A stretch of 64,000 bases of DNA from Chthoniobacterales bacterium. GTDB taxonomy: Bacteria; Verrucomicrobiota; Verrucomicrobiia; Chthoniobacterales; UBA10450. The stretch spans positions 3,016 through 67,015 of the forward strand of contig JBJMXE010000091.1 of NCBI GenBank assembly GCA_045809745.1, in the 5' to 3' direction. Below, piece by piece: positions 17,702-43,772 of this stretch. Each line of letters starts with the position of its first letter. The first letter of the stretch is position 1. A program made the position numbers and the translations under genes. The notes under the pieces were generated by a model that saw only the letters and a list, made by a program, of their open reading frames with translations, was not told the origin of the DNA and searched no databases.

Positions 17702-19240
17702 TTACCGGGCCAGGCTCAGCCGAAAAAACTTTTTCGGCGCCAAGGCGCTTGGAACAGGAGTTTTGAGCCTGAACTTCACCGTCTCAGTCTCGCCATCACC
17801 GGATCCAACAATACTGACCAACTCGATCTGGTTCCCACTCGTGTCCCAGGTCACAAGGTCGTCCGATACCTGAACTACGGCAGGATTTCCATTCCATCCA
17901 AGGAGCTGGTGGAACGCAAAGGTCAGGTATTTGGCCCCGTCGAACGATTCGATGGCCGTGCGGGGCAAGGCATTCGCGTCCGCTATTGGAATTCCGGCTA
18001 ACGGGTCAGTATTAAAAAAATATTCGAGACCGTTCGCGATCCCGTCTTTATCCGGATCGGCCGCCCAGCCGCTGATCTGAAGATTGTTTAATTGGTTAGT
18101 ATCGAAGTGGTCGCTCTGCCATTCCGCAAATGTTTGGGGTACCGGAGAGATTTCCACTGAATCTAAAACAACGTCTGCATCGTGATTCTCCAGTCCAACG
18201 TTCGAGAACTCTATGGTCGAAATCGAAGTCTCCGCGGTGAAGACAAAATGGTAGTGCTGAAGCTGAACCGCGCTCGAATTGAATGTGCTGAAGTAGGGCG
18301 GGTTAATTATTTGCTGGAATATTGGGGTGTTGCCAATCAACCGAACCCTGAGCATTTGAACAAAGTCGCTTATACCGTAAACCCCAGCATCGAAATCGAT
18401 CGAATATGCACGACCCGACGTGGTGAAGAACTGTTGCGAAAGAACATCGTCCTGGAAATCGCCGCCGGGCCCGAATGCAACTGAATGGCTGCCACTGCTG
18501 GCCGCTTCAGATCTGATCGCAGCCTCGCTCACGCCATAAACCGACCAGCCGAAAACGGTGCCGTTCGAATCGAACGGACCGGTCTCGAAATCCCCGTTAA
18601 CCAGAGGCAATAGGACCGGGGGCGGCAGAAGAGTTGGCACGACTGAAACGGTATCGACCATGACATCGGCGTTGAGGTTGCCCAAACCGATGTTGGTAAA
18701 TTGCAGCGTTGTGCTCGAGCTATCGGCAATGAAGCCGTAGCGATAATGTCGAAACACTACAAAGCTCGGATCGAATGTGCTCGCGTCAGGCGGTGTGACT
18801 ATCTGGTCAAGCAAAGACGCCACCCCAGAGACTTCAACAGCGAGTTGCAACGGAGCCTCGGTCCGGACTCCGAACACTCCGGCATCAAACTGCACCAGGT
18901 ACGCTTGTCCCGCCGTGGTTCCAAACGTTTGCGACAAGATATTAGCGTCGCTGTCGCCGCCGATACTGAGTGCGGCTGCGAAACTGCCGCTGGTTGCGCC
19001 TTGCATTGCCGAATGAATGAATCCGGCGCCGAGAATATCCCAATCGAGAATGGTACTGGATGGGTCGTGCGGTACCGCTTCGAAGTCCCCGTTGTGGATG
19101 AGATTCTGCGCATCCATCGCCGCGGCGACACAAAAGCTAAGCAGTACAAGAATGATGGGGCGGAGTTGCACGGGCTGGAGGGACAGGGGGACTGGTTCGG
19201 CGACGGTATCACAAAGTGAGCGGTCAGCTAGAACCAACAC
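17702..19240 (-). CDS. secreted protein with two tandem DUF642/CBM-like domains, a TSP3-like Asp motif and an FFRL-type C-terminal domain
   Basis: Two ~165-aa repeats begin NLIHNGDFE and LVNGDFETGPF. They are followed by DPDKDGIANGLEYFFNTDP and a C-terminus ending KKFFRLSLAR. The real start may be GTG 19171, just before the signal peptide. Confidence 0.7.
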   Translation of the reverse strand: MLVLADRSLCDTVAEPVPLSLQPVQLRPIILVLLSFCVAAAMDAQNLIHNGDFEAVPHDPSSTILDWDILGAGFIHSAMQGATSGSFAAALSIGGDSDANILSQTFGTTAGQAYLVQFDAGVFGVRTEAPLQLAVEVSGVASLLDQIVTPPDASTFDPSFVVFRHYRYGFIADSSSTTLQFTNIGLGNLNADVMVDTVSVVPTLLPPPVLLPLVNGDFETGPFDSNGTVFGWSVYGVSEAAIRSEAASSGSHSVAFGPGGDFQDDVLSQQFFTTSGRAYSIDFDAGVYGISDFVQMLRVRLIGNTPIFQQIINPPYFSTFNSSAVQLQHYHFVFTAETSISTIEFSNVGLENHDADVVLDSVEISPVPQTFAEWQSDHFDTNQLNNLQISGWAADPDKDGIANGLEYFFNTDPLAGIPIADANALPRTAIESFDGAKYLTFAFHQLLGWNGNPAVVQVSDDLVTWDTSGNQIELVSIVGSGDGETETVKFRLKTPVPSALAPKKFFRLSLAR

Positions 19241-19373
19241 AGGCTGGTTCGCTAAATTTTCACAACTCCGATATCTGCTATAAAAACACGACTGGCCATT
19301 ATGGCTAACGACCTGTTCGTCCGAGTTCGCCGGTCAGACCGCACTCGGCCGATCGGTATCGTGCGGAGTGGAC

Positions 19374-22499: not shown

Positions 22500-22699
22500 G
22501 AAGCGTGAACAGTGGCTGAGATTCGATCGAATGGGAAGCGTGAGTGGACATCCCGATGACACCGGGTTCCCTATGCGAAGCACGAATCCAAACACAGTCG
22601 CCTTGCCAAATCGACGGAGATGGCAGCCGCGCGTTGAATTGAACGCCGACACTTCTATTCTGTAAGGCAAGCTGCTAGCGTCCCCCTTTTCGCGTCCTG

Positions 22700-25279
22700 A
22701 TGATTTTCGAGTGCCCTAATTGCAGCCAGAGCCTCGAAGTGGAGAATGCCGGGGCCGGTCAAACAATCCATTGTCCGACATGCGGACAGCCGGTAATCAT
22801 TCCGGATCCCTCGTTTGAGTCGGCGCAGGAGCAAACATCGGGAACAATTGGGCCTCGGCCGCCGATGCACGTCCCATTGCAGCCCGTCGCTCCGGGCGTG
22901 GCGAAGCCGCTGGTAAAGAAACGGCGAGGTTGCGGCTGCGGAAGCTCTCTGCTGCTCTTTCTTATCATCGCGGCCGCCGGATTCGTTTACCTGATGTACC
23001 GTTTCCAGGAATCACCGCACCAAACAGCGGGACGCCTAACTACGTTTGCACGTGGTCTTCTTCAGCATCGCGCTGAACCCGCGACAGAACAAGCGCCCGA
23101 ACAAACACCTGCGCCAACCATTCGACCTGACCCGATTGCCTGGATGAAACAGCACAAGGAGCGATGGCCGGCAGAGGTAATCTTGCGGGAGCCGTTTGAG
23201 TTCCCCGCGGTTTCGAACGGCAACGTTGTCGGATCGCTCAGAGTACCGGCCAGGGCGTCGGTGAAAGTGATCGACATCTCACAAAGCGAAATTGAAGCGG
23301 ACTACATGGGTGGGCGCAGGAAGGTTCCAATCGCCGCGACAGATCTGCGGGTGCGGGCAGAAGCTGCACTGGCTTCGTCCGAACGCGAACAGCCGGCGGG
23401 TCCCGGCCCTTCAGTCACGAACGAAATCGCGAATACGCAAGAGGTAGATTCATCGCGGGAAGCGGATCGCGACCAGATCAAGAGTGGCCTCGGCGCACTA
23501 TATACCGGGGCGGCCACCACCTTTCGGCTGTTCGCGCCTGCAAGTAAGAACGTAGCCGTCGTTCTTTACAATCAATCCACTGGCGAAGAAGGGCGGTCAG
23601 TTTATTCGTTGAAGCAGCAGCCTAACAATCTGTGGGAGACGAGTGTCCGGGGCGATTTGCGGGGCAAGTTTTACACGTTCCTGCTGGACCAGAAGAATTC
23701 GAAAGCTGCGCGGGAAATCTTGGATCCTTATGCGGTGAACTCGGTTGCTAATAGCTCCCGGGGACGGATCACCCCGTTGAATGCGCCACTCACCCATGGG
23801 CCGAGTCTGGCCTCCCCTACTGACGCTATCATTTATGAAATGCACGTCCGGGATTTCACCATTGCCCCGAGTTCCGGCGTTAAGCAGGCGGGGTTGTATC
23901 CCGGCTGGACCGAAAGCGGAGCGCGTCTGCCGGATGACGAGCAGATCAAAACCGGAATCGATCATCTGCGCGAGCTTGGCATCACCCATGTGGAATTGAT
24001 GCCGGTCCAGGATTTCGACAACGACGAAAGTAGCCGCAGCTATAATTGGGGCTACATCACCAGCGCGTTTTTCTCACCTGAAGGAATGTTTGCCACTAAT
24101 CCGGACGACGACACCCGCGTTCGTGAATTGAAGGCACTCATTCGTGCCCTTCATTCCGGCGGAATCGCTGTCATCATGGACGTGGTCTACAATCATACGT
24201 CGGGAAATTCGTCGCTACTGGCGATCTCACCCGATTATTACTATCGACATTCACCTAACGGTTCGCTGGCTAACGGCTCCGGTTGTGGAAATGAATTTAA
24301 GAGCGAGTCGCCGATGGGCCGGCGGTTGATCATCGATTCGTTAAAGTTCTGGGCGAAGGAGTATGGGGTAGATGGGTTCCGGTTTGATCTCATGGCATTG
24401 ATCGACCAGGAAACAATCCGCCAGGCGGATCGGGAGCTTAAGAAAATCAATCCCGGAATCATTTTGTTTGGAGAGCCGTGGACCGGCGGCACGACTCCGC
24501 TGCATGAGAAGACCGACAAACAAGCTCTTCGGCAGGTGCCGGCGGGCGTATTCAACGATGATTTTCGCAACGCCCTCAAAGGCTCGCCCGATCACGACGA
24601 TCCCGGATGGATTCAAAATGGATCCAAACGCGATGCGTTGAAGTCTGCCATGGTGATTAACGACTGGTGCCCGTCACCCGGCCAGTCAATCAACTACATG
24701 ACCTGCCACGACAATCTGGTGTTGTGGGACAAGCTCGTTCACTCAATGCCAAAAGCCGACGACGGTTTGAAGCTGGAGACGATGAAGCTCGGTTATCTGG
24801 CGTTGCTTACCTCGCAAGGGGTTCCATTTATGCATGGCGGCGAAGAATTCGCGCGAACCAAAGGCGGCAACAATAATTCGTTCGAAGCGCCGGATTCGGT
24901 GAACCAGGTTGATTGGAATTTGAAGCGGCAGCATCTGGATCTGTTCACCTACGTCCGTGATCTGATCGGGTTGAGGAAGTCACACCCGATGTTTCGATTG
25001 AGAACGCGCGCTGATGTCCGTTCTCGAGTTCAATTCATAAATGCCTCGGATTCTTCAGTCCTGATGTTTACCGTAAGCGGAGAGGGTGTTCCGGGTGAAG
25101 GATGGAAACGAGCGTGCGTCATTATGAATAGCGCGGACGAAAAAACGGCAGCGGTTAGCCTTCCGGGTGGGGAATGGCAGGTGGCGATGACTGAACAGGG
25201 GAGTGCAACGTCGCCGCGTCTGATTAGCGGGAAGGCGGAAGTTCGGTATAAGTCGGGGCTGGTGCTGTTCCAGCAATAA
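22700..25279 (+). CDS. membrane-anchored type I pullulanase / debranching enzyme (GH13) with N-terminal zinc ribbon
   Basis: N-terminal CPNC..CPTC ribbon and a TM helix (LLLFLIIAAAGFVYLMY). GH13 regions are present: VIMDVVYNHT, GFRFDLMA, GEPW, YMTCHDN. Confidence 0.85.
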   Translation: MIFECPNCSQSLEVENAGAGQTIHCPTCGQPVIIPDPSFESAQEQTSGTIGPRPPMHVPLQPVAPGVAKPLVKKRRGCGCGSSLLLFLIIAAAGFVYLMYRFQESPHQTAGRLTTFARGLLQHRAEPATEQAPEQTPAPTIRPDPIAWMKQHKERWPAEVILREPFEFPAVSNGNVVGSLRVPARASVKVIDISQSEIEADYMGGRRKVPIAATDLRVRAEAALASSEREQPAGPGPSVTNEIANTQEVDSSREADRDQIKSGLGALYTGAATTFRLFAPASKNVAVVLYNQSTGEEGRSVYSLKQQPNNLWETSVRGDLRGKFYTFLLDQKNSKAAREILDPYAVNSVANSSRGRITPLNAPLTHGPSLASPTDAIIYEMHVRDFTIAPSSGVKQAGLYPGWTESGARLPDDEQIKTGIDHLRELGITHVELMPVQDFDNDESSRSYNWGYITSAFFSPEGMFATNPDDDTRVRELKALIRALHSGGIAVIMDVVYNHTSGNSSLLAISPDYYYRHSPNGSLANGSGCGNEFKSESPMGRRLIIDSLKFWAKEYGVDGFRFDLMALIDQETIRQADRELKKINPGIILFGEPWTGGTTPLHEKTDKQALRQVPAGVFNDDFRNALKGSPDHDDPGWIQNGSKRDALKSAMVINDWCPSPGQSINYMTCHDNLVLWDKLVHSMPKADDGLKLETMKLGYLALLTSQGVPFMHGGEEFARTKGGNNNSFEAPDSVNQVDWNLKRQHLDLFTYVRDLIGLRKSHPMFRLRTRADVRSRVQFINASDSSVLMFTVSGEGVPGEGWKRACVIMNSADEKTAAVSLPGGEWQVAMTEQGSATSPRLISGKAEVRYKSGLVLFQQ

Positions 25280-25484: not shown

Positions 25485-26858
25485 ATGTGTTTTAGCTCGA
25501 TACCTGGTCGGCCGCTCGGTTGGGCTGCCTCGATCGCGTTGGCCGTCACATTTACATCGGGCGAGTCGACGGCCGAGACTGCCGCACCGCGCCATGATGC
25601 TTCGTTGCTCCAGCCTGAAATGGAGACGCAGGTGGCGGCGCTACCGCCTGGCGATTACATGTTCGCTGATTGGGGCGGCGTTCGATCGAACTTGCACGAG
25701 CTGGGGATTGATTTCTTCGGCTTCTACAACGCCATCATCAACGGCAACGTGGTGGGCGGATTTGATCCCGGCCACGCCACCTACGCGCACGACATCTGGC
25801 TGGGAGCGAAGTTCGATCTGGAGAGACTGTTTGGATGGACCGGCGGCTTGTTTGGCATCAGCTTCATCGATCGCGCCGGAGATGACCTAACGACACAGCA
25901 TATCGGCAGTATTTATTCGACTCAGCAGCTGGTCGGCGGCCAGCGGCCGTTCTTATACCAGCTTTATCTCCAGCAGAAGTTTGGAAGCTACATCACTGCC
26001 GAGGTAGGCCGTTACGGCGCCTCCGATGATTTCAATACTTCTCGATGGTACGGCTATGCCTTGAACAATGGCATCAACGGCAACATTCGAAATGTTCTGT
26101 TCGACACCCGCTTTTCAGCCTATCCGTTCGCGGTCTGGGCGGCGTCCGTGTTCCTTGACCCGACTCCGGAATTCCATCTCAAGGCCGGCGTATTTCAGGT
26201 TTCGGAAGGGATGTTCGAGAATGATGATAACGGGCTGAACTTCGGCATCGGCGACCGTGATGGTTACCTGGCGATCGTCCAAGTCGCCTGGACACCGGAG
26301 TTCTGCAAAACCGGGACAACTTCAGTTGCCGATCCCAAGAACGGGCCGCTGATGACGAAAGGCATGCCGGGTCATTACTGGTTAGGCGCAACATTCTCTC
26401 AGTGGGATCTTTACCAGAAATTTCTGGGCGGTTTTCTGGATCATTCCTACGGGTTTTATGCTCATGCCGATCAGATGGTTTATCGTGAACAGGTTGGCAG
26501 CGAGCAGGGCCTAACCGTATTTGTCGCGTCCGGTTATTACCCGCAGGAGGAAATCTCGCGTGTTCCATTCCAAATTAATGCCGGCCTGAACTACCGGGGC
26601 CTGTTCCCGGGCCGGGACAACGATCACACTATTGTTTATTTCATTTACGGCGATATCGGCAGCGACTACGCCAGAAGCGTGCAGAAGCCCGGTGGTCACC
26701 GTGCGCAATCAGAAAAGGTAATCGAAGTCGGTCACCGCTTTCAGGTTACCCGGTGGAGCTACATCCAGCCCGATCTGCAATGGGTGATCGACCCCGGCGG
26801 CACGGGTGACATTCCCAACGCCGTTGTGGTCGGCGCGCAAATGGGCGTGACCTTTTAA
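25485..26858 (+). CDS. carbohydrate-selective porin (OprB family)
   Basis: Signal peptide, beta-barrel-like alternating pattern, an OprB-like N-terminal region (DWGGVRSNLHELGIDF) and a C-terminal aromatic residue (GVTF). Confidence 0.75.
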   Translation: MCFSSIPGRPLGWAASIALAVTFTSGESTAETAAPRHDASLLQPEMETQVAALPPGDYMFADWGGVRSNLHELGIDFFGFYNAIINGNVVGGFDPGHATYAHDIWLGAKFDLERLFGWTGGLFGISFIDRAGDDLTTQHIGSIYSTQQLVGGQRPFLYQLYLQQKFGSYITAEVGRYGASDDFNTSRWYGYALNNGINGNIRNVLFDTRFSAYPFAVWAASVFLDPTPEFHLKAGVFQVSEGMFENDDNGLNFGIGDRDGYLAIVQVAWTPEFCKTGTTSVADPKNGPLMTKGMPGHYWLGATFSQWDLYQKFLGGFLDHSYGFYAHADQMVYREQVGSEQGLTVFVASGYYPQEEISRVPFQINAGLNYRGLFPGRDNDHTIVYFIYGDIGSDYARSVQKPGGHRAQSEKVIEVGHRFQVTRWSYIQPDLQWVIDPGGTGDIPNAVVVGAQMGVTF

Positions 26859-26871
26859 GGAGGACATCAAC

Positions 26872-28266
26872 ATGGCTACAGCAATCACACCGCGGTCAAC
26901 GGCCCCAGCCGGACGAATGGATCCGCGCACCGCGCGGCGCGGAATGTTTGTCATCGATAACGGGAGGAACGTTGCCTTCACCTTCTTCCTGCTGGTGTTC
27001 CTGTTTGCCCTGTGGGGTTTTTGCAACGGGATGATCGACGTGATGGACAAGCATTTTCAGGAGGAATTACACCTGAACCTGGCCCAATCAGCCTGGGTCC
27101 AGTTCGCGCACTACCTCGGCTATTTTGTGATGGCGATTCCCGCCGGGTGGCTGGCCATCAAACTCGGCTACAAAGGCGGTATCATCGCCGGATTGCTGAT
27201 GGTGGCAGTCGGCGGGTTCTGGTTCATTCCGGCTACTCACATTGCCCAGTTCTGGGCGTTCTTGTTAGGCGTGTGCGTGATTGCGGCCGGGCTGACGTTC
27301 CTGGAGACGATTGCCAATCCCTACACCACGGTTCTCGGTCCACCGCAGTATGCCGCTACCCGGATCAATCTGGCTCAATCCATTAACGGTATCGGTTTGT
27401 TATGCGGGCCGATCGTGGGTGGAGCGTTTTTCTACTCAAAAAACGCCTCCGGCATAAGCACTGGGAGCGAGCGGCTTTGGATACCCTACGCATTTATCGG
27501 CGTAATGGTGATCGTCCTCGCCATCGTCTTCTTTTTTGCGCCGATGCCCGACATCGAGATGGAAGACGATTACCAAATCGATGATCAGGCCGCGGATGGG
27601 CGCCGATCGATCTGGTCTCATCCACATTTCTGGATGGCGGTCATCGCGCAGTTTCTATACATCGCGGCGCAGGCCGGCATCTTTAGCTTTTTCATCAACT
27701 ACATGACGTCACAGGTGCCGGCGGTACCAGGTTCGTGGGCAACGGCATGGCCCGGCTGGTTCGAGCTGCACCCCAACGGCATTCTCGGTTTTAGCAACAA
27801 GGGGGCATCAAATCTGGCTTCGTTAGGCTTTCTCTGCTTTCTGATCGGCCGCTTTAGCGGCAGTGCGATCCTGAAAAAATTCACTCCTTATAAGGTGCTG
27901 GCCTGGTATTGCATTGCCGCCGCGGTTCTCTGCCTTGTTATCTTCTTCAAACTGGGATGGGTATCGGTAGCGTCGGTCTTCCTCACCTACTTCTTCATGT
28001 CGATCATGTTTCCGACGATCTTTGCGCTCGGAATCTTCGGCCTCGGTCAATGCGCCAAAAAAGCGTCATCCTTCATTGTCATGGCGATCATGGGTGGCGC
28101 TATCCTGCCGAAGGTCATGGGGGCGGTGGCCGATCGCTACGATTTATCGCGAGGCTTCATTGTTCCGATGCTCTGCTTTGCGTTTGTGGCGTTTTATGGC
28201 TTCATGTGGCCACGACTGAGTCATGGCGAAGGTGCCGTGACCGTCTCCACTTCGACCGGCCACTGA
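26872..28266 (+). CDS. MFS sugar:H+ symporter (FucP / glucose-galactose GluP family)
   Basis: About 12 TM helices. The family-typical N-terminal motif FALWGFCNGMIDVMDKHFQ is present. Confidence 0.85.
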   Translation: MATAITPRSTAPAGRMDPRTARRGMFVIDNGRNVAFTFFLLVFLFALWGFCNGMIDVMDKHFQEELHLNLAQSAWVQFAHYLGYFVMAIPAGWLAIKLGYKGGIIAGLLMVAVGGFWFIPATHIAQFWAFLLGVCVIAAGLTFLETIANPYTTVLGPPQYAATRINLAQSINGIGLLCGPIVGGAFFYSKNASGISTGSERLWIPYAFIGVMVIVLAIVFFFAPMPDIEMEDDYQIDDQAADGRRSIWSHPHFWMAVIAQFLYIAAQAGIFSFFINYMTSQVPAVPGSWATAWPGWFELHPNGILGFSNKGASNLASLGFLCFLIGRFSGSAILKKFTPYKVLAWYCIAAAVLCLVIFFKLGWVSVASVFLTYFFMSIMFPTIFALGIFGLGQCAKKASSFIVMAIMGGAILPKVMGAVADRYDLSRGFIVPMLCFAFVAFYGFMWPRLSHGEGAVTVSTSTGH

Positions 28267-28832
28267 TGAGTGCGACGTTCGAAGTAGATCATTCCAGGAT
28301 CGCGACCGACCCGGCGCTGGCACACTTCGCTGAGGAACTCGATCGGCTGTGCCCTATCGATTCGGTTGACGCGTTCAATCGTTATTCCCGTACCGCATGT
28401 CGACTTTGGCGTGACCGTTTCCCGGACCGCGCTGGCGAAATCCCTGACCGATTTCGCAAACTTCGGGAACAGATCGATTCCGGAGGTGCGAACGTAATCC
28501 GGACACGGTGGGGCGGCGTGGTCGTCACTTTGCACGAACACCCGCGAGTCGAGAAGTTCCTCGTGGTCGACTCCGGCCATTATCTCGCACTCGAAAAGCA
28601 CGAGCAGAAGGTCGAGCGCCTGGAATCGACTGAAGGAATGGGTCTGGTGCTCTGGCGGAATGCCGGTTCCGGCGGCTTGTTAGCGGAGCTGTTTTTGCCG
28701 TCCGGGGTATTGCAGCTTGGTCCCGGCATCGAGCATTGCCTTATCGGCCTCGAGAATCTCGTGGTGTTTGAACGGTCCATTGACCCGAAAGGGATGGACC
28801 AAGACCTGATTTTTATCTACGAGCCGAACTGA
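28266..28832 (+). CDS. cupin-like protein resembling the type II phosphomannose isomerase C-terminal domain
   Basis: ATG 28266 overlaps the transporter stop (TGATG). The C-terminal half (KFLVVDSGHYLALEKHEQKVERLESTEGMGLVLW...GMDQDLIFIYEP) resembles the PMI-type cupin. The longer ORF from 27909 overlaps the transporter in another frame. Confidence 0.5.
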   Translation: MSATFEVDHSRIATDPALAHFAEELDRLCPIDSVDAFNRYSRTACRLWRDRFPDRAGEIPDRFRKLREQIDSGGANVIRTRWGGVVVTLHEHPRVEKFLVVDSGHYLALEKHEQKVERLESTEGMGLVLWRNAGSGGLLAELFLPSGVLQLGPGIEHCLIGLENLVVFERSIDPKGMDQDLIFIYEPN

Positions 28833-28833
28833 C

Positions 28834-29763
28834 ATGAGGGGCGAGTTCTTTGCGTTCGGTGAGATGCTTTGGGATTGTCTGCCGTCGGGGAAGCACGCAG
28901 GGGGCGCGCCCTTCAATGTTGCCGCGCATCTTGCCCAACTCGGTGTGCCAGTGGCGCTCATTTCAGCGGTAGGTCGCGACCCATTAGGCGATGAGCTATT
29001 ACAGGTAGCTCGAGACAAAAAGATATTTACCGATTTCATCGGACGCGTCCGCATTGGTCTGCCGACCGGAACGGTGGTGGCAACGTTAGACCAAAAAGGC
29101 AACGCAACTTACGAGTTGGTCCAGCCAGCAGCGTGGGATGAAATCAAAATTTCAGCGAAAGCACTTACTGCCGTCGCGCAGGCGCGCGCTTTGACCTTCG
29201 GATCGCTCGCTGGCCGCTCCCCTTACAACCTTGAACAGTTGAACGAGCTATTGAAGGTCAATGGACCGTTAAAGTTTTTCGACGTCAATCTCCGCCCGCC
29301 ATTTGTTGATCCGCCACTGGTGATCGACCTGGCTAAACGTGCCGACGTACTCAAGCTGAACGATGGCGAAGTTGGTAAACTGGCGGCGTGGTTGGAAACG
29401 GGCGAGCTCGCGGGTAACGGTCCGCGTGGTCCCGATGAGGTGGCCCGCGCTTGCGCGATCGTTGCCGATGCCACCGAGGTCACACGCATTTGTGTGACGC
29501 TGGGGGAAGCGGGGGCAGCTTTGTGGGATCAGGGCAATGTGTTTACCGCGCTGGCTCCGAAAGTCGTTGTGCGGGACACGGTGGGGGCCGGCGACGCATT
29601 CATGGCTGGCTTGATGGTTGGCCTAACACGTGGCATCAATCCAACGACCATGCTGGAGAATGCATGCCGGCTCGGAGCCTATGTAGGGTCCCATTATGGG
29701 GCAACTCCATTGCTGCCGCCGGAGATCACCGAGCTGTTTAAGGCCCGAAGCACCGGCTCCTAG
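28834..29763 (+). CDS. PfkB-family sugar kinase (fructokinase-like)
   Basis: Motifs GGAPFNVAAHLAQLG and DTVGAGDAF. The start is 1 nt after the preceding stop. Confidence 0.85.
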   Translation: MRGEFFAFGEMLWDCLPSGKHAGGAPFNVAAHLAQLGVPVALISAVGRDPLGDELLQVARDKKIFTDFIGRVRIGLPTGTVVATLDQKGNATYELVQPAAWDEIKISAKALTAVAQARALTFGSLAGRSPYNLEQLNELLKVNGPLKFFDVNLRPPFVDPPLVIDLAKRADVLKLNDGEVGKLAAWLETGELAGNGPRGPDEVARACAIVADATEVTRICVTLGEAGAALWDQGNVFTALAPKVVVRDTVGAGDAFMAGLMVGLTRGINPTTMLENACRLGAYVGSHYGATPLLPPEITELFKARSTGS

Positions 29764-32556: not shown

Positions 32557-32679
32557 TGACATTCAGGTAATCATCTCCAAGACGGGGGTGAGCGACCCGG
32601 CTTCAACCAGATGGGTCCGGCTACAGGTCGCCATTCGGCTGGACTTTTTCCCCTGAAGCAGGTAAAAACCTTGACTCGG

Positions 32680-34191
32680 ATGCGGTGGAAAAATCTATAT
32701 TTTTGCGGGAACGCTTTGTTAGCGACCGCAGTTCTATTGGCGGCGGCGATGGTATCAAGCGCGGTCGCAGGGACAATTACTGTGACCAGCACTGCTGACA
32801 ACGGCGCGGGCAGTTTGCGGGCGGCGCTCGGTTCCGCGGGCGGTAACGACACCATTGATTTCGCTCTGAACTTGCCGGCAGTGATTACGCTGACCACCGG
32901 CGAACTACTCGTCACCAACAACGTGACGATCTCCGGACCTGGAGCCGCCAATCTGACGATCAGCGGAGGTAACGCGGGGCGGGTGTTTCATGCCGGAACA
33001 TCGAATACGGTCACCATTTCGAGCCTAACGATTGCCGATGGGCTGGTGAGCGCAGGCGGCGTCGGCGCGGGGATTTATCTCGAGAACGCGAATTTGACGC
33101 TGCTGAACTGCGTCATCCAGAACAACCACGCTACTGGTGGAAGCACCGCGCACGGTGCCGGAATTTACGCCATCCAATCTCAGCTCACTCTGACTGGATG
33201 CACCATCGGCAGCAATGTTGCTTCAGGAAACGGCGGAGGTGTTTACAACATTGGTTCCACCGTAACGCTGAATCGCAGCACAATCAGCGGAAACAGTGGA
33301 CTGAATGGCGGCGGGTTGTTCAGTGCCGCTGGCACGACCAACCTGATTGGCTGCCTCGTTAGCGCGAACGTTGCGACTCATGGCGGCGGCGTAGCGAACG
33401 TAGGCGCGCTCGGCGCAGCTGCGCTGACAATGAATAACTGTACCTTTAGCAGCAACACCGTGTCTGGCGCGAGCGCTACCGGAAGTCAGGTTTATAATTC
33501 GCGTCAACTATCAGCCACTTCGGCAGCGATCATCAACTCGACAATTTTGAGCAATATGGTTGCGGGCAATTATGCCGGCGGAGCGGTCTACAATGAAAAT
33601 GGAGCAACTGTTACCGCAGGGAGCAGCATCATTCAGACAAGCGTGCAGGAACATAGCTTCGTTAACGCCGGCGCGGGAAGCATCACTTCGATGGGTTACA
33701 ACCTGAGTTTCGATACCGGTAACGGTTTTCTGACTGGTCCGGCCGATCAGATCAGTACCGATCCATTGCTCGATGTCGGCACTGGACCTCGTGACAACGG
33801 CGGCCCTACGTTCACAATCGCTCTCCAGGCGAACAGTCCGGCGATTGATAAGGGCAAAGTGTTCGGCAGCGGCACCGATCAGCGGGGCGAACCGCGACCA
33901 TTCAACGACCCGGGTGTGCCCAACGCTGTAAACGGGGACGGGAGTGACATCGGGGCATACGAAGCGGATCTGCGCCTAACAAGTCTGGCCAGAGTGAGCA
34001 ACAATTTGCAGCTTAACTTTACCACTATTGTCGGAAAGAGTTACCAGCTACAGAGCCGGCCAAGCCTGGTGATGGGCGGTTGGAACGGTGTTGGTGGCGC
34101 GTTGGCCGGCAATGGCGGGATTGAAGGTTCAACGGCCACGAACGCGTTCAGTTCGGCAGTGCAGTTCTATCGCATCTTGCAGACGCCGTAG
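32680..34191 (+). CDS. secreted right-handed beta-helix protein (choice-of-anchor Q / PMP-repeat-like) with FYRI-type C-terminal domain
   Basis: ORF 32611..34191. ATG 32680 precedes a signal peptide. The N-terminal motif is TVTSTADNGAGSLRAALGSAGGNDTIDF. Repeated GGG(V/L)(Y/F) turns follow, and the protein ends VQFYRILQTP. Confidence 0.7.
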   Translation: MRWKNLYFCGNALLATAVLLAAAMVSSAVAGTITVTSTADNGAGSLRAALGSAGGNDTIDFALNLPAVITLTTGELLVTNNVTISGPGAANLTISGGNAGRVFHAGTSNTVTISSLTIADGLVSAGGVGAGIYLENANLTLLNCVIQNNHATGGSTAHGAGIYAIQSQLTLTGCTIGSNVASGNGGGVYNIGSTVTLNRSTISGNSGLNGGGLFSAAGTTNLIGCLVSANVATHGGGVANVGALGAAALTMNNCTFSSNTVSGASATGSQVYNSRQLSATSAAIINSTILSNMVAGNYAGGAVYNENGATVTAGSSIIQTSVQEHSFVNAGAGSITSMGYNLSFDTGNGFLTGPADQISTDPLLDVGTGPRDNGGPTFTIALQANSPAIDKGKVFGSGTDQRGEPRPFNDPGVPNAVNGDGSDIGAYEADLRLTSLARVSNNLQLNFTTIVGKSYQLQSRPSLVMGGWNGVGGALAGNGGIEGSTATNAFSSAVQFYRILQTP

Positions 34192-34953: not shown

Positions 34954-34963
34954 ATGGTTCTCC

Positions 34964-34989: not shown

Positions 34990-35007
34990 ACTAATTCTGC
35001 TGAAGGG

Positions 35008-35039: not shown

Positions 35040-35070
35040 CGACGACGCTCAACACGACATCCAAAATTAC

Positions 35071-37437
35071 TCAATCGGGCAGTACTCGGAGGCGATATTG
35101 CCGCTGACTTACTCCTGAAGCGGAGGCATCGCTAACAACCAGACTCGTGGAATCCGCAGCGCGGATGTTACCGAACTGCGTCCACGTGCCGGACATCAGA
35201 TTATCCACGTATTCGGCGACGTAACGTTTGAGCGGCACTGATCGAAAGGTCAGCGTGACCGTCGTTCCGTCCGCGGTGATCCTTGCAGGCGCCAGATTGT
35301 CGGCTGCGTCTACCGGGCTCGTTCCGGCAATAAACTCGGCGTAGTTGCTCATTCCGTCGCCATCGCTATCGATATTCGGCGATGCTGCGGTTGTGGATCC
35401 GAAGTATTGCTGTTCCCAGTCGTTAGGCAGGCCGTCGTTGTCGCTGTCGCTGCGAATCACAAACCCGGCGACGTCACTGGTAGCCTTTTCTGGCCTCACA
35501 TCCGAGCCGTTCAACCTGGAGACACAGTTGGTGAAGGTGACGGCGTTGGCATGCCGCATGTAGTAGCCATAGGCTGGAAGATTTCCCCACAAATTCGCCT
35601 CCGGGTACTGATTGCTGTCCCATTCCGGCGGATTTGGCGGCACCGTGTTCAGGCCGCCCTTGAATGTAATATTGCAGTTTGTGAAAAACAGATTCTTGAT
35701 CGGATAGATCGTGCCGTTGTAGAGCTGACCGCTGATGTTCGATCCGTAGATGTCACTGGTGCTGTTGTCTACACTGCAAAGAATGTCGGTGAAGTGGACG
35801 TTGTCGAGGGTGCCTAACTTATCCATGTCTCCATCGGGATGGCCGGGTTGCTGACCCAGGAACACGAAAAAAGCCGAACCGCAATTGGAGAATTCCAAAC
35901 GTGAGAAGTTGATGTTGCTGACATCCGCGCCATTGCGCGACATTACCACCATGGCCGCAAACCGGGCATTCTTAGCGTAGCAATCCTGGAGCAACGCATT
36001 TGTGAAGCCGCCATAGCTGGCGGTGCCGAACTTGTAGCTGTTCGCGCCCGTGTGCGCGGTGAAACAATCTTTGATCACCAGATCATCCACTCCTCGGCGG
36101 ATTCCCGTTTTCGGGCAGAATGAATCGTCGCCGGTATACACGGTGCAATCCTGAATGACGGCGTGATGACAGTCTACCGGATCGATGCCATCACGAGTTG
36201 GAAAAAGGTCCACGTTCAGCAAAACGTCTTTGATGAGCACGTTATCGGTTTCCATCGGCACAATCGTCCACATCGCCGAAAGTCTAACGTAGATGTTTTG
36301 GATGGTGACGTGATCGGAAAGCACTGTCCAAATGGTTATCGGTCGCTCCGCTTCCTTTATATCGGTGTTGTACCACGATTTCCCATCGGTCGAACCATCG
36401 AGTCCACTTCCGTCGATTGTTCCGCCGCCGTCAATTGTGAGGTTGGTGCAGCCTTCGGCGTAAAGGTGAGCGCGACGGCAGTTCAAAAGCTGGTTGTTGG
36501 TAGTGGCTGGAGATTGTTTGGGAAAGTCCGCGCCGTTAAGTGACGCCTTCAAGTTCGCCGTGCTTTCGATGAAAAGAGTCATGTTGCTCTTCAGATTCAA
36601 CATGCCGGTGAGATAAGTTCGGGGACCGCTCAGGTAAACACTTCCTCCGGTGCCGGCGCAGGCGTCAATGGCGGACTGAATAGCAGCGGTGTCGTTAGTC
36701 GTGCCGTCACCCACCGCATTGTATGGAGGAGCATGCACATCCAGCACCGGACCCGGTGGAGCGCCGATGAAGGCGCCCAACTCCCAAATCTTCACGTTGT
36801 CCACGTACAAGATGCCGGTGTTCGTGCCATCCATGTAAAACTTCAGCTGGCCGAGGCTGCCGCCGGTGGGAGCATTGCGGACAGCGGCGTTATTCAGTTT
36901 CCGCACACCGTCGATGAACAGGTCATACGTGTTGGCGGTCGTATTGATCACCACCCGGATCATGTACCAGTCGTTGGGCACGAAAGGTTGAATGGTTGTT
37001 TTCGTACCGCCGATGTAGGAGACGATATTTCCGTTTTCCAAACCCACCGAAACAACAGCGATCCCGTTCCCATCATAGATATACGGGCACACTTTGAAGC
37101 CGTTTGTGGCGCGGGTGAGCACCTTCGCTTCGAACGCAACTCTTCCGCTCTGACTTGCAAACGTCCGGGAAAGCGTTGATTCGCCTGAAGTAGTAGTCTT
37201 CTCGATCCGGACGCTCTTGTCTGCGGCGAAAGGGTATTCTCTGATCTGCACCGACCCGCTGGTGGCAACGCTAATCCAGTTGTTAGCTGGACCGGCATTG
37301 GTCGTCATTCCGTTGAATTTCTCGTTAACGACATAGATGCCGGTCGCATCCGCAGTTCCCGCGCACAGAAGCAGGCCGATAAGACCGATCGCTCTGTATG
37401 AGAACACGGCTAGCCGGGTGAAAGGCTGATACGGCAT
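35071..37437 (-). CDS. secreted LamG-like lectin domain + GH28-type beta-helix glycosidase + TSP3-like repeats + YRL-type C-terminal domain
   Basis: ORF 35071..37716. ATG 37437 precedes a signal peptide. The N-terminal concanavalin/LamG-like region ends in LYVDNVKIWE. The pectate-lyase-3/GH28-like region has YNAVGDGTTNDTAAIQSAIDAC and TGDDSF. These are followed by SDSDNDGLPNDWE, DSDGDGMSNYAEF and the ending RQYRLRVLPD. Confidence 0.75.
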   Translation of the reverse strand: MPYQPFTRLAVFSYRAIGLIGLLLCAGTADATGIYVVNEKFNGMTTNAGPANNWISVATSGSVQIREYPFAADKSVRIEKTTTSGESTLSRTFASQSGRVAFEAKVLTRATNGFKVCPYIYDGNGIAVVSVGLENGNIVSYIGGTKTTIQPFVPNDWYMIRVVINTTANTYDLFIDGVRKLNNAAVRNAPTGGSLGQLKFYMDGTNTGILYVDNVKIWELGAFIGAPPGPVLDVHAPPYNAVGDGTTNDTAAIQSAIDACAGTGGSVYLSGPRTYLTGMLNLKSNMTLFIESTANLKASLNGADFPKQSPATTNNQLLNCRRAHLYAEGCTNLTIDGGGTIDGSGLDGSTDGKSWYNTDIKEAERPITIWTVLSDHVTIQNIYVRLSAMWTIVPMETDNVLIKDVLLNVDLFPTRDGIDPVDCHHAVIQDCTVYTGDDSFCPKTGIRRGVDDLVIKDCFTAHTGANSYKFGTASYGGFTNALLQDCYAKNARFAAMVVMSRNGADVSNINFSRLEFSNCGSAFFVFLGQQPGHPDGDMDKLGTLDNVHFTDILCSVDNSTSDIYGSNISGQLYNGTIYPIKNLFFTNCNITFKGGLNTVPPNPPEWDSNQYPEANLWGNLPAYGYYMRHANAVTFTNCVSRLNGSDVRPEKATSDVAGFVIRSDSDNDGLPNDWEQQYFGSTTAASPNIDSDGDGMSNYAEFIAGTSPVDAADNLAPARITADGTTVTLTFRSVPLKRYVAEYVDNLMSGTWTQFGNIRAADSTSLVVSDASASGVSQRQYRLRVLPD

Positions 37438-37827
37438 CAATCTCTTAGTGCGATACTGAGTTGAAAATCTGCGGCTCACCGCAACAACGCAGCGAGATTC
37501 GGGGTCAGGACGAGTGTCAGTATTCTGCGCAGCATGAACGCGCCAGATCAAGGCAAAACCGGCCATTTTAGCCGGTACCAGCCTGCAAACGCGGCGCAGG
37601 CGCCTTGCACTTCGGGCTCTAGAGCGGCTCGCTGCCATTATGCAACGAGCGCGCTCAGAGTGTCCGGACTTCCTAGCGTGGGCTTCCAGCCTATGTTTTG
37701 CCCCGACCATCGGCAAAGTGCCGATGCCACAACTTTAGGATGAACAGAACGCGAACGTTCGCGCGCTGACCATCAGCAGGCTTTGACCGTTCCAGGAAAA
37801 TCCTGACGGTCCTCCCGGCCGATGCGG

Positions 37828-38295: not shown

Positions 38296-38445
38296 GGCTG
38301 CATGGAGCAGAGATTTCGCGGAGAGGTCAACGTTTTTCTGGTTCGTAAATTGCGCGGATCGAGGAAGTTCCGACGGGTTCTGCAAAAGAAGTGAGCCGAA
38401 TTTGATTGTCGGGTGCACCGGGCGCGGATATGCCGTACAGCATCG

Positions 38446-40452: not shown

Positions 40453-40563
40453 TGCGCGGTGGCCGCGCCGGCAGGCAGACGCAGGGCGGAGCTCCTGCGA
40501 CGCCGTGCTTTATCAATGACGCTGGTCGGCGGTCATGCAGGAGCTCGCCCACGCGCGGAGAAG

Positions 40564-40593
40564 TTGTAGAGGTGCTCGCTGCGGCGAGGACCT
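40564..40593 (+). repeat. GTAG-headed REP-like hairpin followed by a T5 run
   Basis: TTGTAGAGGTGCTCGCTGCGGCGAGGACCT has a 10-bp stem with one mismatch, followed by GTTTTTC. It faces the next hairpin in a convergent pair. Confidence 0.6.
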
Positions 40594-40603
40594 GTTTTTC
40601 TAG

Positions 40604-40632
40604 AGAGGCGGTTGACACAACCGCCTCTACCA
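40604..40632 (-). repeat. GTAG-headed REP-like hairpin (class AGAGGCGGTTG)
   Basis: The reverse complement reads TGGTAGAGGCGGTTGTGTCAACCGCCTCT. It has an 11-bp perfect stem and a TGT loop. Confidence 0.75.
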
Positions 40633-40673
40633 CGGTCGGTCGATCCGACGTTCCTGCGATTGGCCTAACAGCC

Positions 40674-43600
40674 CTACGGATAGGCTATTCGGTAAAATCG
40701 CTTCTGCGGGTTTGGCGGATTCGAATCGTTGAACGGAAAAGCTCCGTTGGAATCGGCGGTTGGTGACCCGATGGTGTTGAAGCTGTTAGGCACAGTCAGG
40801 TCATCGGTGGCTTCGATTCGGTTCACCGCATTGGCTACACCCAGGCAGTTTAACGACACTCCGGACCCCAACGGGGTGATTGACGTAATCCGCAGGTCGA
40901 CGGGCAGAGAAGTCGGCAGCGGCCAAACGTAAGCGCCGCGGCTGCGGGTCCACACCGAAAGCGTGGTTGAGCCGCGATCGATCTGGATATCCCAGATCAT
41001 GGCGTGCGGCAGACCATTCTCGAACCGCTGCCATACTGGTGACGCAGCATTGATGTTGTTGGTGTAGTACAAACCCCAATCGGTGCCGGCGAACACCTGT
41101 TGCGGAACGTTCGGATTCACAATAACGGAATCAACCGGAACGTTAGGGAGATTGCCGGTCTTATTCTGCCACGTCGGCGCCGCGCAGTTGGCGTTGCAAA
41201 CGACCTGATAAACGTGGCCGGGAGTTGTCGGCGTATTCTCATTGAAGCCTCCCACCGCGGCATAGCCGACCGGAGTCGCGGCAGCGGCGACCGAGGGATC
41301 GAGCGCTATACCAAGAATCGGACGGTTAGGCAGCACGGTGTTGTTATTCGTGAGGTTTATCCAGTTCGCCTGGCTGGGAGATCCGGTGCCGAGGTTAAAT
41401 CCGATCCACACGTTGCCGTCGTTTGTTCCGGCCATGGCAACCGAGTGATATTTCGGAGAGTATTTAACCTGATTGATATGCGACCGGTCGCTCAGGCTTT
41501 GCTTGGTCATGTTCTGGGTCGACGGGTTGTTGGTCACGTACCAGCTATTACCGTTCATGTTGCTGATCCCGCCCGAGGTCGTTTCCCAGACCCGAGTGGT
41601 ACCGACAATGAGCTGTCCACAACCGCCGGGGACGCCGGCGGCCGCGCAGTCGTCGCCGTTAGGTATCCCGCCGTGAAACAAATCATAAGGAAGAATGAAT
41701 GATTGGGTGTCGGTCGCCCAGCGGCCTTTGACGTTCGTCCAAGTCGCACCCGAAGCAGTACAATTGCTGACACAACGGCTGATGCCGCCACTGTTGTTCC
41801 CTTGGAAGAATCGAAGGCTTGTGCCGGTGCCTACGGGATCAATCCGGCTGTAGAAACCATCGCCTCCGAGTCCGGTTTGCCACTGAATCGGTCCTGTAGG
41901 CGTGCCGGAAAACATTACCGAACTCGCGCCGTTGTCCTGCGCACCGCCACTGGCCTGGGGCGTCGCCGAAGTCGCAAAATTGCCGCTGATATCACCCGAA
42001 TAAAACTCAATCGTGTTCAGCCCGGTATCCATATTGAACCAGGTTGGATCCGTGGCTGCCGTGGCCAGGTTCGCCATTGTCGTTCCATGAATACCGCCGT
42101 CATTTCCGACGAGCAGAATGCTGGAGGAGCCGGGAACGAAGGCGAGGGCATGCTGATCTACGTGCACACCGTTGTTTTTTGCCGCATACCCGCAGGTGAT
42201 ATCGTTCCACGGAAGAGTCGAAGTAGCGACGTTGCTTCCGTCCCAAAACCAAATCTCGAACGTATCGAAAAATGCGCGGTTAGGGTTATTCGGATCCACG
42301 GCCACACCCTGATCGTACCAGTTTTGCGAGTAATCGCCCGCACCGCCCTGGCAATCGGTTAGGGAACTGCCGGGCGATCCGGGAATTTGGGTCCAGTTGG
42401 CGCCTCCATCAATGGAGCGGTAGGCGCCAAGCTGGCACCCGGGCGCGTTGCCGCAGCTCGATTGCGGGGCGATCGCCTGCAACTGGGCGTAGATGTAATT
42501 CGGATTGCTGGGCGCGACGGCAATATCGATGCGCCCAACCTGATTGCCCACAGCTGCGCCTCCATATGGAGTGCCGCTGGTGGCGTGCAAGCCTGTCCAA
42601 CCGTTGTTATCCGTGGCGATTGGAGCGAAGTCGCCGGGACAGCCGCTGGCTGGGATGGTGCCTTTGTAAATTCCATTCGCGCCGTTGAGGTTCAGGTTGT
42701 ACTGAACGGCCGTCGAGTAACCGCGAACGCCGACCGCGGCGATGACGCGTGTACTGCTGCCGTCATCCACCAAGGCTAGACCGGTGATGTCCTGTCGCTG
42801 GGTGTTGAAATTATCGGTTGTGCACGGGCCGGCCCAATTTGTGCCGCCGTCGTAGGAGAAGTACAGACCGGTTTTCGTGCCCGCGACGACGTTGTTGCTA
42901 TTTCTGGGATCGACTCGCACTTTGCCTACCGATTGGTATTGCGGGAACTGACCTGCAGGTTGTGCGAGCGCCGGCCCAAACACATCTGCACCGAGCAATA
43001 TCCAGCTCGCTCCGGCGTCAGTGGACTTCAGAATGCCCTGGCTACCCATCGAAAACGTGCCGAAGTTGAGGTCACCCGTTCCGGCATAGATGGTGTTGTG
43101 ATTATTGGGGTCGATCGTTAGGGTGTCGATGCTGATTGTTGCCAGAAGTGGGTCGTCCGTTACCGCAGTCCAGTTGGTGGTGGTGCTGCAACAGTTAGTT
43201 GTCTTCCACACACCACCGCCGTCCGATCCCAGGTAGGCAACAATAGTGCCATTGCTAGTGGTGGTCGGATCGACCACAATGTCGTTAACGCGGCCGGCCG
43301 TGGTAGTGTAATCGTAGCACCCGGTGCAGCCGGTCATGCGCAACGGTTGCGGGCCGAGGGCAGTGAAAGCATTCGGGTTGAGACCGGCCGTCGCCGCCGG
43401 ACTGGCCGCTACGTTGGCCCTCGATCCTTTCACGTTGGATCTGGAAGTGCCAAACGGCACGCCGCGCCGGATGGCCCCATCTTGAAGGGCGGCACTCCGC
43501 AGCCATGAAGGATCAAACCGCCCGGTCGGATAGGTCAGGCGGTTATTCCATTCCTGTTCCAGCCGTTCCAGATCTTCGCCTTTTTCTCCGGCAACCGGCA

Positions 43601-43772
43601 TGTCGCGGAAACGTTCTTCGGCGGGCGCACCCGAACTCTCGCCTGGCATCTGTGGCCGGGAAACCCCTACCACACTGGCGTAGGCGAGGAATGCACCCGC
43701 GGAACACAGGGTAACGGCCGCGACGAGCCTTGGGGTGACAAAACCAGCCGTAGGCATAGCGATCTTAGACAT
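40674..43772 (-). CDS. large secreted Asp-box/BNR beta-propeller protein with FYRI-type C-terminal domain
   Basis: ORF 40674..43817. ATG 43772 (or 43757) precedes a signal anchor. Asp boxes STDAGASW, SYDGGTNW and SIDGGANW are present. The protein ends KRFYRIAYP. Confidence 0.75.
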   Translation of the reverse strand: MSKIAMPTAGFVTPRLVAAVTLCSAGAFLAYASVVGVSRPQMPGESSGAPAEERFRDMPVAGEKGEDLERLEQEWNNRLTYPTGRFDPSWLRSAALQDGAIRRGVPFGTSRSNVKGSRANVAASPAATAGLNPNAFTALGPQPLRMTGCTGCYDYTTTAGRVNDIVVDPTTTSNGTIVAYLGSDGGGVWKTTNCCSTTTNWTAVTDDPLLATISIDTLTIDPNNHNTIYAGTGDLNFGTFSMGSQGILKSTDAGASWILLGADVFGPALAQPAGQFPQYQSVGKVRVDPRNSNNVVAGTKTGLYFSYDGGTNWAGPCTTDNFNTQRQDITGLALVDDGSSTRVIAAVGVRGYSTAVQYNLNLNGANGIYKGTIPASGCPGDFAPIATDNNGWTGLHATSGTPYGGAAVGNQVGRIDIAVAPSNPNYIYAQLQAIAPQSSCGNAPGCQLGAYRSIDGGANWTQIPGSPGSSLTDCQGGAGDYSQNWYDQGVAVDPNNPNRAFFDTFEIWFWDGSNVATSTLPWNDITCGYAAKNNGVHVDQHALAFVPGSSSILLVGNDGGIHGTTMANLATAATDPTWFNMDTGLNTIEFYSGDISGNFATSATPQASGGAQDNGASSVMFSGTPTGPIQWQTGLGGDGFYSRIDPVGTGTSLRFFQGNNSGGISRCVSNCTASGATWTNVKGRWATDTQSFILPYDLFHGGIPNGDDCAAAGVPGGCGQLIVGTTRVWETTSGGISNMNGNSWYVTNNPSTQNMTKQSLSDRSHINQVKYSPKYHSVAMAGTNDGNVWIGFNLGTGSPSQANWINLTNNNTVLPNRPILGIALDPSVAAAATPVGYAAVGGFNENTPTTPGHVYQVVCNANCAAPTWQNKTGNLPNVPVDSVIVNPNVPQQVFAGTDWGLYYTNNINAASPVWQRFENGLPHAMIWDIQIDRGSTTLSVWTRSRGAYVWPLPTSLPVDLRITSITPLGSGVSLNCLGVANAVNRIEATDDLTVPNSFNTIGSPTADSNGAFPFNDSNPPNPQKRFYRIAYP

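Follow-up and report, generated by a model that had tools for sequence, protein, structure and literature searches.

A very large family of predicted C-terminal beta-sandwich domains: a candidate surface-anchoring or sorting module of Verrucomicrobiota

Introduction

Soil, water and the gut are rich in Verrucomicrobiota that degrade polysaccharides, and how these bacteria place enzymes and adhesins on or past the outer membrane is poorly understood. The locus described here bears on that question. It lies in a 64-kb stretch of DNA (64,000 nucleotides, positions 3,016 to 67,015 of contig JBJMXE010000091.1, assembly GCA_045809745.1; hereafter the window) that is part of a metagenome-assembled genome of a Chthoniobacterales bacterium (Verrucomicrobiota). 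Four proteins encoded in the window appear to be exported, have unrelated N-terminal parts and end in an aromatic-aromatic-Arg-aliphatic motif. A sequence-only reading of the window had proposed that the four tails form one shared C-terminal domain (CTD) that it could assign to no named family, that matches neither the CTD of the T9SS (type IX secretion system) nor PEP-CTERM, and that is a candidate sorting or anchoring module. Is this shared domain real, and what might it do? We report that three of the four tails belong to one very large family of strongly terminal domains, and we weigh what such a domain may be for.

Three of the Four Tails Belong to One Family

All four open reading frames (ORFs) were found where the sequence-only reading had placed them, and scans with Pfam and NCBIfam agreed with its description of their N-terminal parts as a pair of DUF642 domains, a beta-helix, a GH28 domain and a propeller. 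In a regular-expression scan of the stop-to-stop ORFs of the window, these were the only four credible genes ending in the aromatic-aromatic-Arg-aliphatic motif. Direct pairwise comparison of the tails was unconvincing: identities ranged from 14 to 25%, most phmmer pairs scored below 8 bits, and 16 bits were reached only by the beta-helix and propeller tails. A profile search was therefore used. The seed profile (A2) comprised the four window tails and two database fragments, and it was run with HMMER exhaustively against 1.84 billion cluster representatives; this exhaustive search was needed because word-indexed homologue searches with the short domain gave 2 and 4 matches. The seed profile retrieved a family of 12,683 cluster representatives at E ≤ 1e-3, of which 537 passed E ≤ 1e-10 and 9 passed E ≤ 1e-30.

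A database-only profile (DB.hmm; family alignment A3) was then built from 279 domain copies of the best 150 proteins, with no window sequence included, and run against the 954 window ORFs of at least 40 residues. The C-termini of the GH28, propeller and beta-helix proteins were matched at 50–55 bits (E about 1e-15), and each of these matches spanned essentially the whole profile and stopped 3–4 residues ahead of the stop codon. The next best window ORF after these three carriers had an E-value of 0.7. These results demonstrate homology for three of the four tails, all of which belong to a very large family. The proposal that all four tails share one domain thus stands for the beta-helix and propeller proteins (independent E-values, iE, of 4e-15 and 1.3e-14) and for the GH28 protein (Table 1), and it fails for the DUF642 protein, which the database-only profile did not match (E 3.6). 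Profile searches of the window ORFs and of the database, in line with a check that the sequence-only reading had called for, gave significant similarity for three tails and thousands of database homologues.

The Domain Lies at the Protein End, and Its Last Copy Has Features of Its Own

Position was counted in the best 150 of the 12,683 proteins. The last CTD copy ended at most 5 residues from the protein end in 140 of these 150 and at most 10 residues from it in 144, and all single-copy matches were terminal. The exceptions comprised three arrays of fibronectin type III (FN3) domains with a partial profile match, one truncated protein and one real case with a downstream domain; the remaining exceptions carry short extensions of 6–27 residues (P0001, P0075 and P0034, together with P0052 and P0058, which have 6 residues). 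The FN3-array proteins (P0065, P0142 and P0079) were matched by the N-terminal half of the CTD profile only, and a classical tail of T9SS type (...YPNP...KILKK) closes P0065 and P0142. These two look like the same sort of array protein fitted with another phylum's end-tag. P0001 and the gene at 8669-10309 (+) of locus L001, both close relatives of the beta-helix protein, carry 22–27 extra residues after the CTD in place of the usual 3–5.

At the DNA level, where true stop codons could be read, the last copy lay 2–27 residues before the stop in all 11 carrier ORFs of seven fetched loci. Four of these ORFs were neighbours that no search had selected: one alpha-amylase/Big_5 protein, two array proteins of the cadherin/Big_9 type and an ORF of 927 residues. 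In each of them 2–7 residues separated the end of the domain from the stop. The terminal bias is therefore extreme in the best-scoring proteins, and the unselected genes agree with it.

The end of the domain also has a recognizable form. In 121 of 137 proteins 3–5 residues followed the motif [FY][FY]R[VLI], and 91 of 137 had Pro as their final residue, the usual tail being [FY][FY]R[VLI]-x-x-x-Pro-stop. Pro occupied position +4 in 61% of terminal copies versus 11% of internal copies, in which the sequence runs on as x-L-L-[TGS]-x-x-x-P. In multi-copy proteins scored with a profile of single-copy domains, terminal copies reached a median of 41.5 bits and internal copies 30 (Mann–Whitney p 2e-7). 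Since terminal copies both carry the +4 Pro more often and score higher, the last copy has features of its own. The three window tails, which read FYRILQTP-stop, FYRIAYP-stop and QYRLRVLPD-stop, agree with the pattern [FY][FY]R[VLI]-x(2-4)-Pro near the stop.

Predicted Fold and Absence from Domain Databases

The CTD is about 70 residues long. Its family consensus is ITSITVSGGQVTLTWTSVAGQTYRVQYKDDLASTNWTTLGNDVAATGGTASFTDTNAGGAPQRFYRVRV, which can be summarized as the pattern ...L.W....G..Y.vQ.....L....W......tD.......RFYRv...P; the Trp at position 42 in the tail of the beta-helix protein and, at position 72, the second Arg were kept in at least 90% of 56 diverse members. AlphaFold2, given a 56-sequence alignment, modelled the CTD of the beta-helix protein as a six-strand all-beta domain with a mean pLDDT (predicted local distance difference test) of 93.5 and a pTM (predicted template modelling score) of 0.79. 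Prediction of the isolated domain thus gave a confident structure, on which the CTD is an autonomously folding six-strand beta-sandwich. The strand order proposed from the window tails agrees with both the family consensus and this model. The central hairpin of the CTD, S/T-x-D-L-x-x-x-W, seems to resemble an Asp-box, and a faint match to the CTD profile (iE 0.007) was seen within a BNR blade of the propeller protein itself (residues 863-892 of the ORF at 40674-43817 (-)).

No model in Pfam-A or NCBIfam covered the CTD, whether whole proteins, isolated tails, ten canonical members or 56 single domains were scanned, and the 56 single domains gave no consistent Pfam or NCBIfam match at E ≤ 0.1. 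The suggestion that the domain lacks a named family was thus borne out for both collections. DUF7298 (PF23972) was considered as an equivalent family and rejected: it rose above its cut-off on one eight-copy protein over 42 residues and matched 0 of the 56 single domains. That match, of 38 bits, fell inside one copy of P0003, whose eight CTD copies (residues 204-800) alternate between two subtypes in the order A-B-A-B. A Foldseek search of the CTD model against the PDB gave no match at E ≤ 0.001, the best being of FN3 type with E ≥ 0.07 and a template modelling (TM) score of about 0.5. An FN3 fold lacking its last strand and completed by donor-strand exchange was considered and is not claimed here. 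Full-text literature searches found no description of the CTD or its motif. Modules of this kind, in which diverse exported proteins end in a small beta-sandwich, are already known from T9SS; the present family has no sequence relationship to the T9SS CTD, occurs in another phylum, carries a terminal signature of its own and is missing from both Pfam and NCBIfam.

Tandem Copies and Partner Domains

Among the best 150 proteins, 131 carry 2–9 copies of the CTD, each separated from the next by a median of 12 residues, and the terminal copy is often set apart from the internal array. The accompanying domains are highly diverse, with 60 Pfam families found among 49 proteins. They include Big_9, I-set/Ig, cadherin-like, MBG_2/YDG, Laminin_G_3, RCC1, PPC, fn3, S8 peptidase and Calx-beta domains, as well as NHL/SGL propellers and the choice-of-anchor C, Q and R domains of NCBIfam. 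These partners are typical of extracellular or surface proteins. The 'choice-of-anchor' domains of NCBI are families that occur with alternative C-terminal anchors.

Comparison with Known C-Terminal Systems

By analogy of function, the closest counterpart of the CTD is the type A CTD of T9SS (Por_Secre_tail, PF18962/TIGR04183), which is found in Bacteroidota. Both are small beta-sandwiches (about 70–90 residues in T9SS) at the extreme C-terminus, lack a transmembrane helix, occur on diverse Sec-exported cargo that includes enzymes and adhesins, are abundant per genome and appear to belong to one phylum. The T9SS CTD also follows the 'choice-of-anchor' cargo families, and it ends FN3-array proteins at the place where Verrucomicrobiota proteins carry the CTD described here. 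The two nevertheless show no sequence relationship. T9SS CTD models (PF18962, TIGR04183 and PF13585) matched none of the four window proteins, their isolated tails or the 56 members at E ≤ 0.1; profile–profile comparison with hhalign gave nothing meaningful (P 0.34); and no T9SS CTD appeared in the top 50 Foldseek matches. The Verrucomicrobiota CTD moreover has six predicted strands and is often tandem, and no PorU-type processing is known for it. T9SS itself is not known from Verrucomicrobiota.

The PEP-CTERM/exosortase system (PF07589, TIGR02595), the C-terminal anchor already known in Verrucomicrobia, likewise marks the C-terminus of many exported proteins there and has choice-of-anchor partners, but its signal is short and linear, consisting of a PEP motif, then a transmembrane helix and lastly a basic tail, whereas the window tails are folded, polar and all-beta. 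None of the four window proteins had a PEP motif or a hydrophobic stretch of about 20 residues in its last 30 residues, and none was matched by the PEP-CTERM hidden Markov models. That the tails match neither of these two systems, as first supposed, therefore holds for the models of both and for the sequence features of PEP-CTERM. The PPC domain (PF04151) is a C-terminal beta-sandwich of about 70 residues in secreted proteases that co-occurs with the CTD in some proteins; PPC is thought to aid secretion and to be removed afterwards. In contrast to the CTD, PPC occurs mainly on Proteobacteria proteases and lacks the RFYR...Pro end, and its model does not match the CTD.

The nearest neighbours in structure, weak as they are, come from FN3 domains (PF00041; Tencon and cytokine-receptor FN3, TM 0.5–0.6; best FN3-type Foldseek match E 0.07, TM 0.52). 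FN3 domains share with the CTD a pattern of W in strand B and Y in strand C and a tendency to tandem arrays, and a PDB 'Fn3-like protein' (3mpc) was matched at E 0.011. The CTD differs in having six strands rather than seven, in being about 20 residues shorter and in its restriction to the protein end; none of the 56 members matched PF00041 at E ≤ 0.1, and hhalign against fibronectin 10Fn3 gave a local match of 13 columns only. The chitosan-binding CBM32/discoidin domains DD1 and DD2 (2rv9, 4zxe) resemble the CTD in the central hairpin L.W....Y.iq.S.d...W..v (E 3e-5, 49 columns). They are, however, jelly rolls of about 130–150 residues of which a third was matched, and they were not among the top Foldseek matches; the F5/8 type C/CBM32 models (PF00754/PF22633) gave no full-length match, and sub-threshold Pfam scores appeared only in summed multi-copy proteins.

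Taxonomic Range and Gene Neighbourhoods

Every record with a taxon label belonged to Verrucomicrobiota: the window, the three genome loci that a scan of a genome collection with a narrow subfamily alignment found, P0011, P0172, P0005 and P0012. Carriers are often adjacent, with two in locus L005 and three in locus L007, and in the window the three carriers and the DUF642 variant lie within 26 kb.

One locus (L004, 1-18985, on a 10.5-Mb contig) carries a T2SS-F gene of the type II secretion system (T2SS), three genes for prepilin-type (N_methyl) proteins and three ORFs with no assigned function (one of 1385 residues) directly upstream of an S8 protease of 2994 residues with eight CTD copies; the proteins of this cassette themselves lack the CTD. 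We take the arrangement as a lead only. At another locus (L006, 2038-7870; GCA_037025285.1), a set of GAAD, GASH, DO-GTPase1, DO-GTPase2 and GAP1-N1 genes lies upstream of the CTD protein P0047 and looks like a GTPase-centred conflict system.

A Candidate Surface-Anchoring or Sorting Domain

We put at roughly one in two the probability that the CTD is a phylum-specific (Verrucomicrobiota) C-terminal domain for surface anchoring or sorting. The function is suggested by position and partners: the strictly terminal location, the terminal-copy signature with its final Pro, the many unrelated exported cargos, the placement directly after 'choice-of-anchor' domains, the high copy number per unit genome and the apparent restriction to one phylum. 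Export of the cargo is suggested by signal-peptide-like N-termini read by eye; its surface localization and a receptor or machinery would be further parts of the proposal. On this reading, cargo such as glycosidases, proteases, beta-helix proteins, propellers and adhesin-like Ig-array proteins would be exported via Sec; the terminal CTD, acting as a folded address or anchor, would be recognized by or bind a component of the outer envelope, which may be an outer-membrane partner protein or a surface glycan; and the cargo would thereby be delivered to and held at the cell surface. Additional tandem copies could add avidity or reach, and in the last copy the functional form would include the free C-terminus, which is usually capped by proline.

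Several observations weigh against this reading. The position and copy counts come from a list biased toward multi-copy proteins with high summed scores. Tandem arrays of 2–10 copies are common, whereas the known cleaved sorting signals (T9SS CTD, PEP-CTERM and LPXTG) are single, and internal copies keep the RFYR strand, so that the motif is probably structural rather than a terminal signal. Most matches are unlabelled metagenome contigs and labels exist for a handful of records, so the phylum range rests on few records. No recurrent machinery was found beside the carriers: the T2SS-F/pseudopilin cassette occurs at one locus, with nothing comparable at three others. The proposal of a candidate sorting or anchoring module is therefore upheld in part, in that a shared folded terminal module does occur on unrelated exported proteins, while its tandem copies are unlike cleaved sorting signals. 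Since arrays occur and RFYR is retained within them, a folded binding unit is indicated rather than a linear or cleaved signal, which makes an anchor that binds an envelope partner or polymer, and gains avidity by repetition, more plausible than a pure export signal.

A more specific and doubtful possibility is that the CTD is the cargo tag of an unrecognized Verrucomicrobiota pathway for delivery and attachment at the outer membrane, with a function analogous to that of the T9SS CTD system. As a variant, such a tag might work with the T2SS and pseudopilin-like cassettes of the phylum, as the gene of the eight-copy protease downstream of such a cassette could suggest.

Of the other explanations, the one that survives best is a ligand-binding accessory module, similar to a carbohydrate-binding module (CBM) or lectin, that targets substrates or other cells with no role in sorting or in retention on the cell's own surface. 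We consider it a less likely alternative. The multiplicity of tandem copies is typical of avidity-based binding modules, the CTD is attached to GH28, alpha-amylase and pullulanase-type enzymes, members show weak F5/8 type C matches, and the profile matches the central strands of CBM32/discoidin domains at E 3e-5. That last match, however, covers 49 of about 136 residues of a domain twice the size of the CTD. The partners, moreover, are not mainly carbohydrate-active, S8 proteases, Ig/cadherin arrays, RCC1/NHL propellers and MBG/YDG proteins being among them, and CBMs are neither confined to the protein end nor marked by a Pro-COOH specific to the terminal copy.

Rather unlikely, in our judgement, is a passive Ig/FN3-like spacer, stalk or C-terminal cap that spread within Verrucomicrobiota by domain shuffling and tandem duplication. 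On this account, the terminal bias would reflect the mode of acquisition together with protection of the chain end from carboxypeptidases, and would carry no address. A C-terminal proline would indeed resist many carboxypeptidases; the best Foldseek matches are of FN3 type, the N-terminal half of the profile cross-matches FN3 arrays of other bacteria, and long arrays with alternating subtypes occur. Generic spacers, however, sit between modules and not almost exclusively at the end, and a single copy on a compact enzyme, as in the three window proteins, has no spacing role. The terminal copy frequently stands apart from the internal array and shows a somewhat distinct constraint, and the site directly after choice-of-anchor domains is where anchors occur. 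Finally, chance likeness among beta-rich tails, to which the low pairwise identities and phmmer scores and the failure of the DUF642 tail might have pointed, is extremely improbable overall and is refuted for three of the four tails by their scores against the window-free profile and by thousands of database homologues with the same architecture.

With its more than 12,000 clusters, its strictly terminal position and its lack of a Pfam or NCBIfam model, the family offers a practical marker of the exported protein set of its phylum; that the Prokaryotic Genome Annotation Pipeline (PGAP) calls the propeller protein 'hypothetical' illustrates an obvious annotation gap. If the CTD is a sorting or anchoring tag, it would give a direct handle on an unknown envelope-targeting mechanism and a candidate surface-display module for biotechnology. 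If it marks a delivery pathway, simply searching with the profile would delimit the surface and secreted proteins of a phylum that is major in soil and gut and poorly cultured, and phylogenetic profiling against the tag would point to the machinery. Were it merely binding or structural, it would still be a large new domain family deserving a curated model.

The Four Proteins and Their Setting in the Window

The features of the four proteins are listed in Table 1. Signal-peptide-like N-termini, with basic and hydrophobic stretches and a cleavage motif of small residues, were recognized by eye in all four. The genes are dispersed over both strands, with unrelated genes between them. The contig that holds the window measures 67 kb, and an exact-sequence look-up gave eight of ten window proteins under the label 'Chthoniobacterales bacterium'.

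Table 1. Features of the four candidate proteins (window coordinates; E-values for CTDs are from the database-only profile).
Feature	Position	Strand	Description
DUF642 protein, ORF	17702-19240	-	Two DUF642/choice-of-anchor C domains (PF04862, 1.6e-10; TIGR04362, 1.3e-22, 80.8 bits, under its 120-bit cut-off)
C-terminal module of DUF642 protein	17705-17971	-	89 residues; distinct module; ends ...KKFFRLSLAR-stop
TSP3-like motif DPDKDGIANGLEYFFNTDP	18002-18058	-	Read directly in the sequence; precedes the DUF642 tail module; kept in P0173-P0175
Beta-helix protein, ORF	32611-34191	+	Gly/Asn-rich parallel beta-helix, then choice-of-anchor Q; probable start Met24 (32680)
Choice_anch_Q of beta-helix protein	33790-33966	+	Residues 394-452; NF041518, E 9.5e-17, 61 bits vs cut-off 25; immediately upstream of the CTD
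CTD of beta-helix protein	33967-34188	+	iE 4e-15, profile positions 2-68; ends ...VQFYRILQTP-stop
GH28 protein, ORF	35071-37716	-	GH28 rhamnogalacturonidase-like, then TSP3 repeats (PF00295, 1.4e-11; NF049898, 8e-43, 146.8 bits, under its 500-bit cut-off; PF18884)
GH28 gene, PGAP	35071-37437	-	788 residues, MFL6515243.1 (exact-sequence look-up)
Two bacterial TSP3-type repeats	35314-35448	-	Asp-rich, calcium-binding type; PF18884 TSP3_bac, E 1.7e-8; link the GH28 beta-helix to the CTD
CTD of GH28 protein	35074-35286	-	iE 5e-16, profile positions 4-68; ends ...RQYRLRVLPD-stop
Propeller protein, ORF	40674-43817	-	BNR-like propeller
Propeller gene, PGAP	40674-43772	-	1032 residues, 'hypothetical protein', MFL6515246.1 (exact-sequence look-up)
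CTD of propeller protein	40677-40898	-	iE 1.3e-14, profile positions 1-67; ends ...KRFYRIAYP-stop

The neighbouring genes encode a pullulanase, an OprB porin, a major facilitator superfamily (MFS) transporter, a PfkB kinase, an outer-membrane beta-barrel, DUF892 and LysE proteins, an amidohydrolase, efflux and ATP-binding cassette (ABC) systems and methyltransferases, an ordinary metabolic, transport and efflux content. No secretion or sortase-type apparatus and no T9SS genes were found among the genes of the window, nor did it contain tRNA genes; its G+C content is even at 55–59%. The CTD was absent from the other exported window proteins, namely an amidohydrolase, an alpha/beta hydrolase, a Sortilin/BNR protein and two whose function is unknown, and it therefore marks a subset of exported proteins.

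The Tail of the DUF642 Protein

Three database relatives (P0173-P0175), alike in architecture, share the last 89 residues of the DUF642 protein in conserved form, with 53–58% identity over the 142-residue C-terminal query and 51–56% over the last ~89 residues (alignment A5). The tails of these relatives end in KF[LI]RLxL and are preceded by DPDxD(G/R)xxNGxE(Y/F)FxNT(D/N)P. Profile–profile comparison of A5 with A3 (hhalign) gave P 1.6e-4 at a probability of 50% over 65 columns, in the register of the sequence-only reading and with an insertion of some 13 residues ahead of the last strand. AlphaFold modelled the DUF642 tail (pLDDT 80) with six strands in the same order as the CTD family, and Foldseek against the PDB returned weak Ig-like matches only, none at E ≤ 0.001. 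The DUF642 tail is a distinct C-terminal module and not a demonstrable member of the CTD family, to which it is at best, and possibly, distantly related.

The TSP3-like motif DPDKDGIANGLEYFFNTDP of the DUF642 protein resembles the DSDGDGMSNYAEFIAGTSP linker of the GH28 protein. In both proteins, an Asp-rich motif of TSP3 type followed by N-x-x-E-[YF]-x-x-G/N-T-x-P precedes the C-terminal domain or module; this stretch weakly matches the NCBIfam model 'Amuc_1099 family pilus-like system protein' (E 5e-5), as does P0105 just before its CTD. A TSP3 repeat as an obligatory linker of the CTD was considered and rejected, such a linker preceding the CTD in 6 of 107 database proteins.

Other Observations in the Window

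An ORF of 388 residues (8628-9794 (-)) with a signal peptide and no Pfam match is extremely acidic at its end, the last ~100 residues being nearly all Asp, Glu, Gly and Ala. The pullulanase-type GH13 protein (22700-25279 (+); CBM_48, Alpha-amylase and Pullul_strch_C domains) has a zinc-ribbon-like CPNC...CPTC motif at its start in place of a signal peptide. It is adjoined by the OprB porin, the MFS transporter and the PfkB sugar kinase (25485-29763), and together this set looks like a system for glucan uptake.

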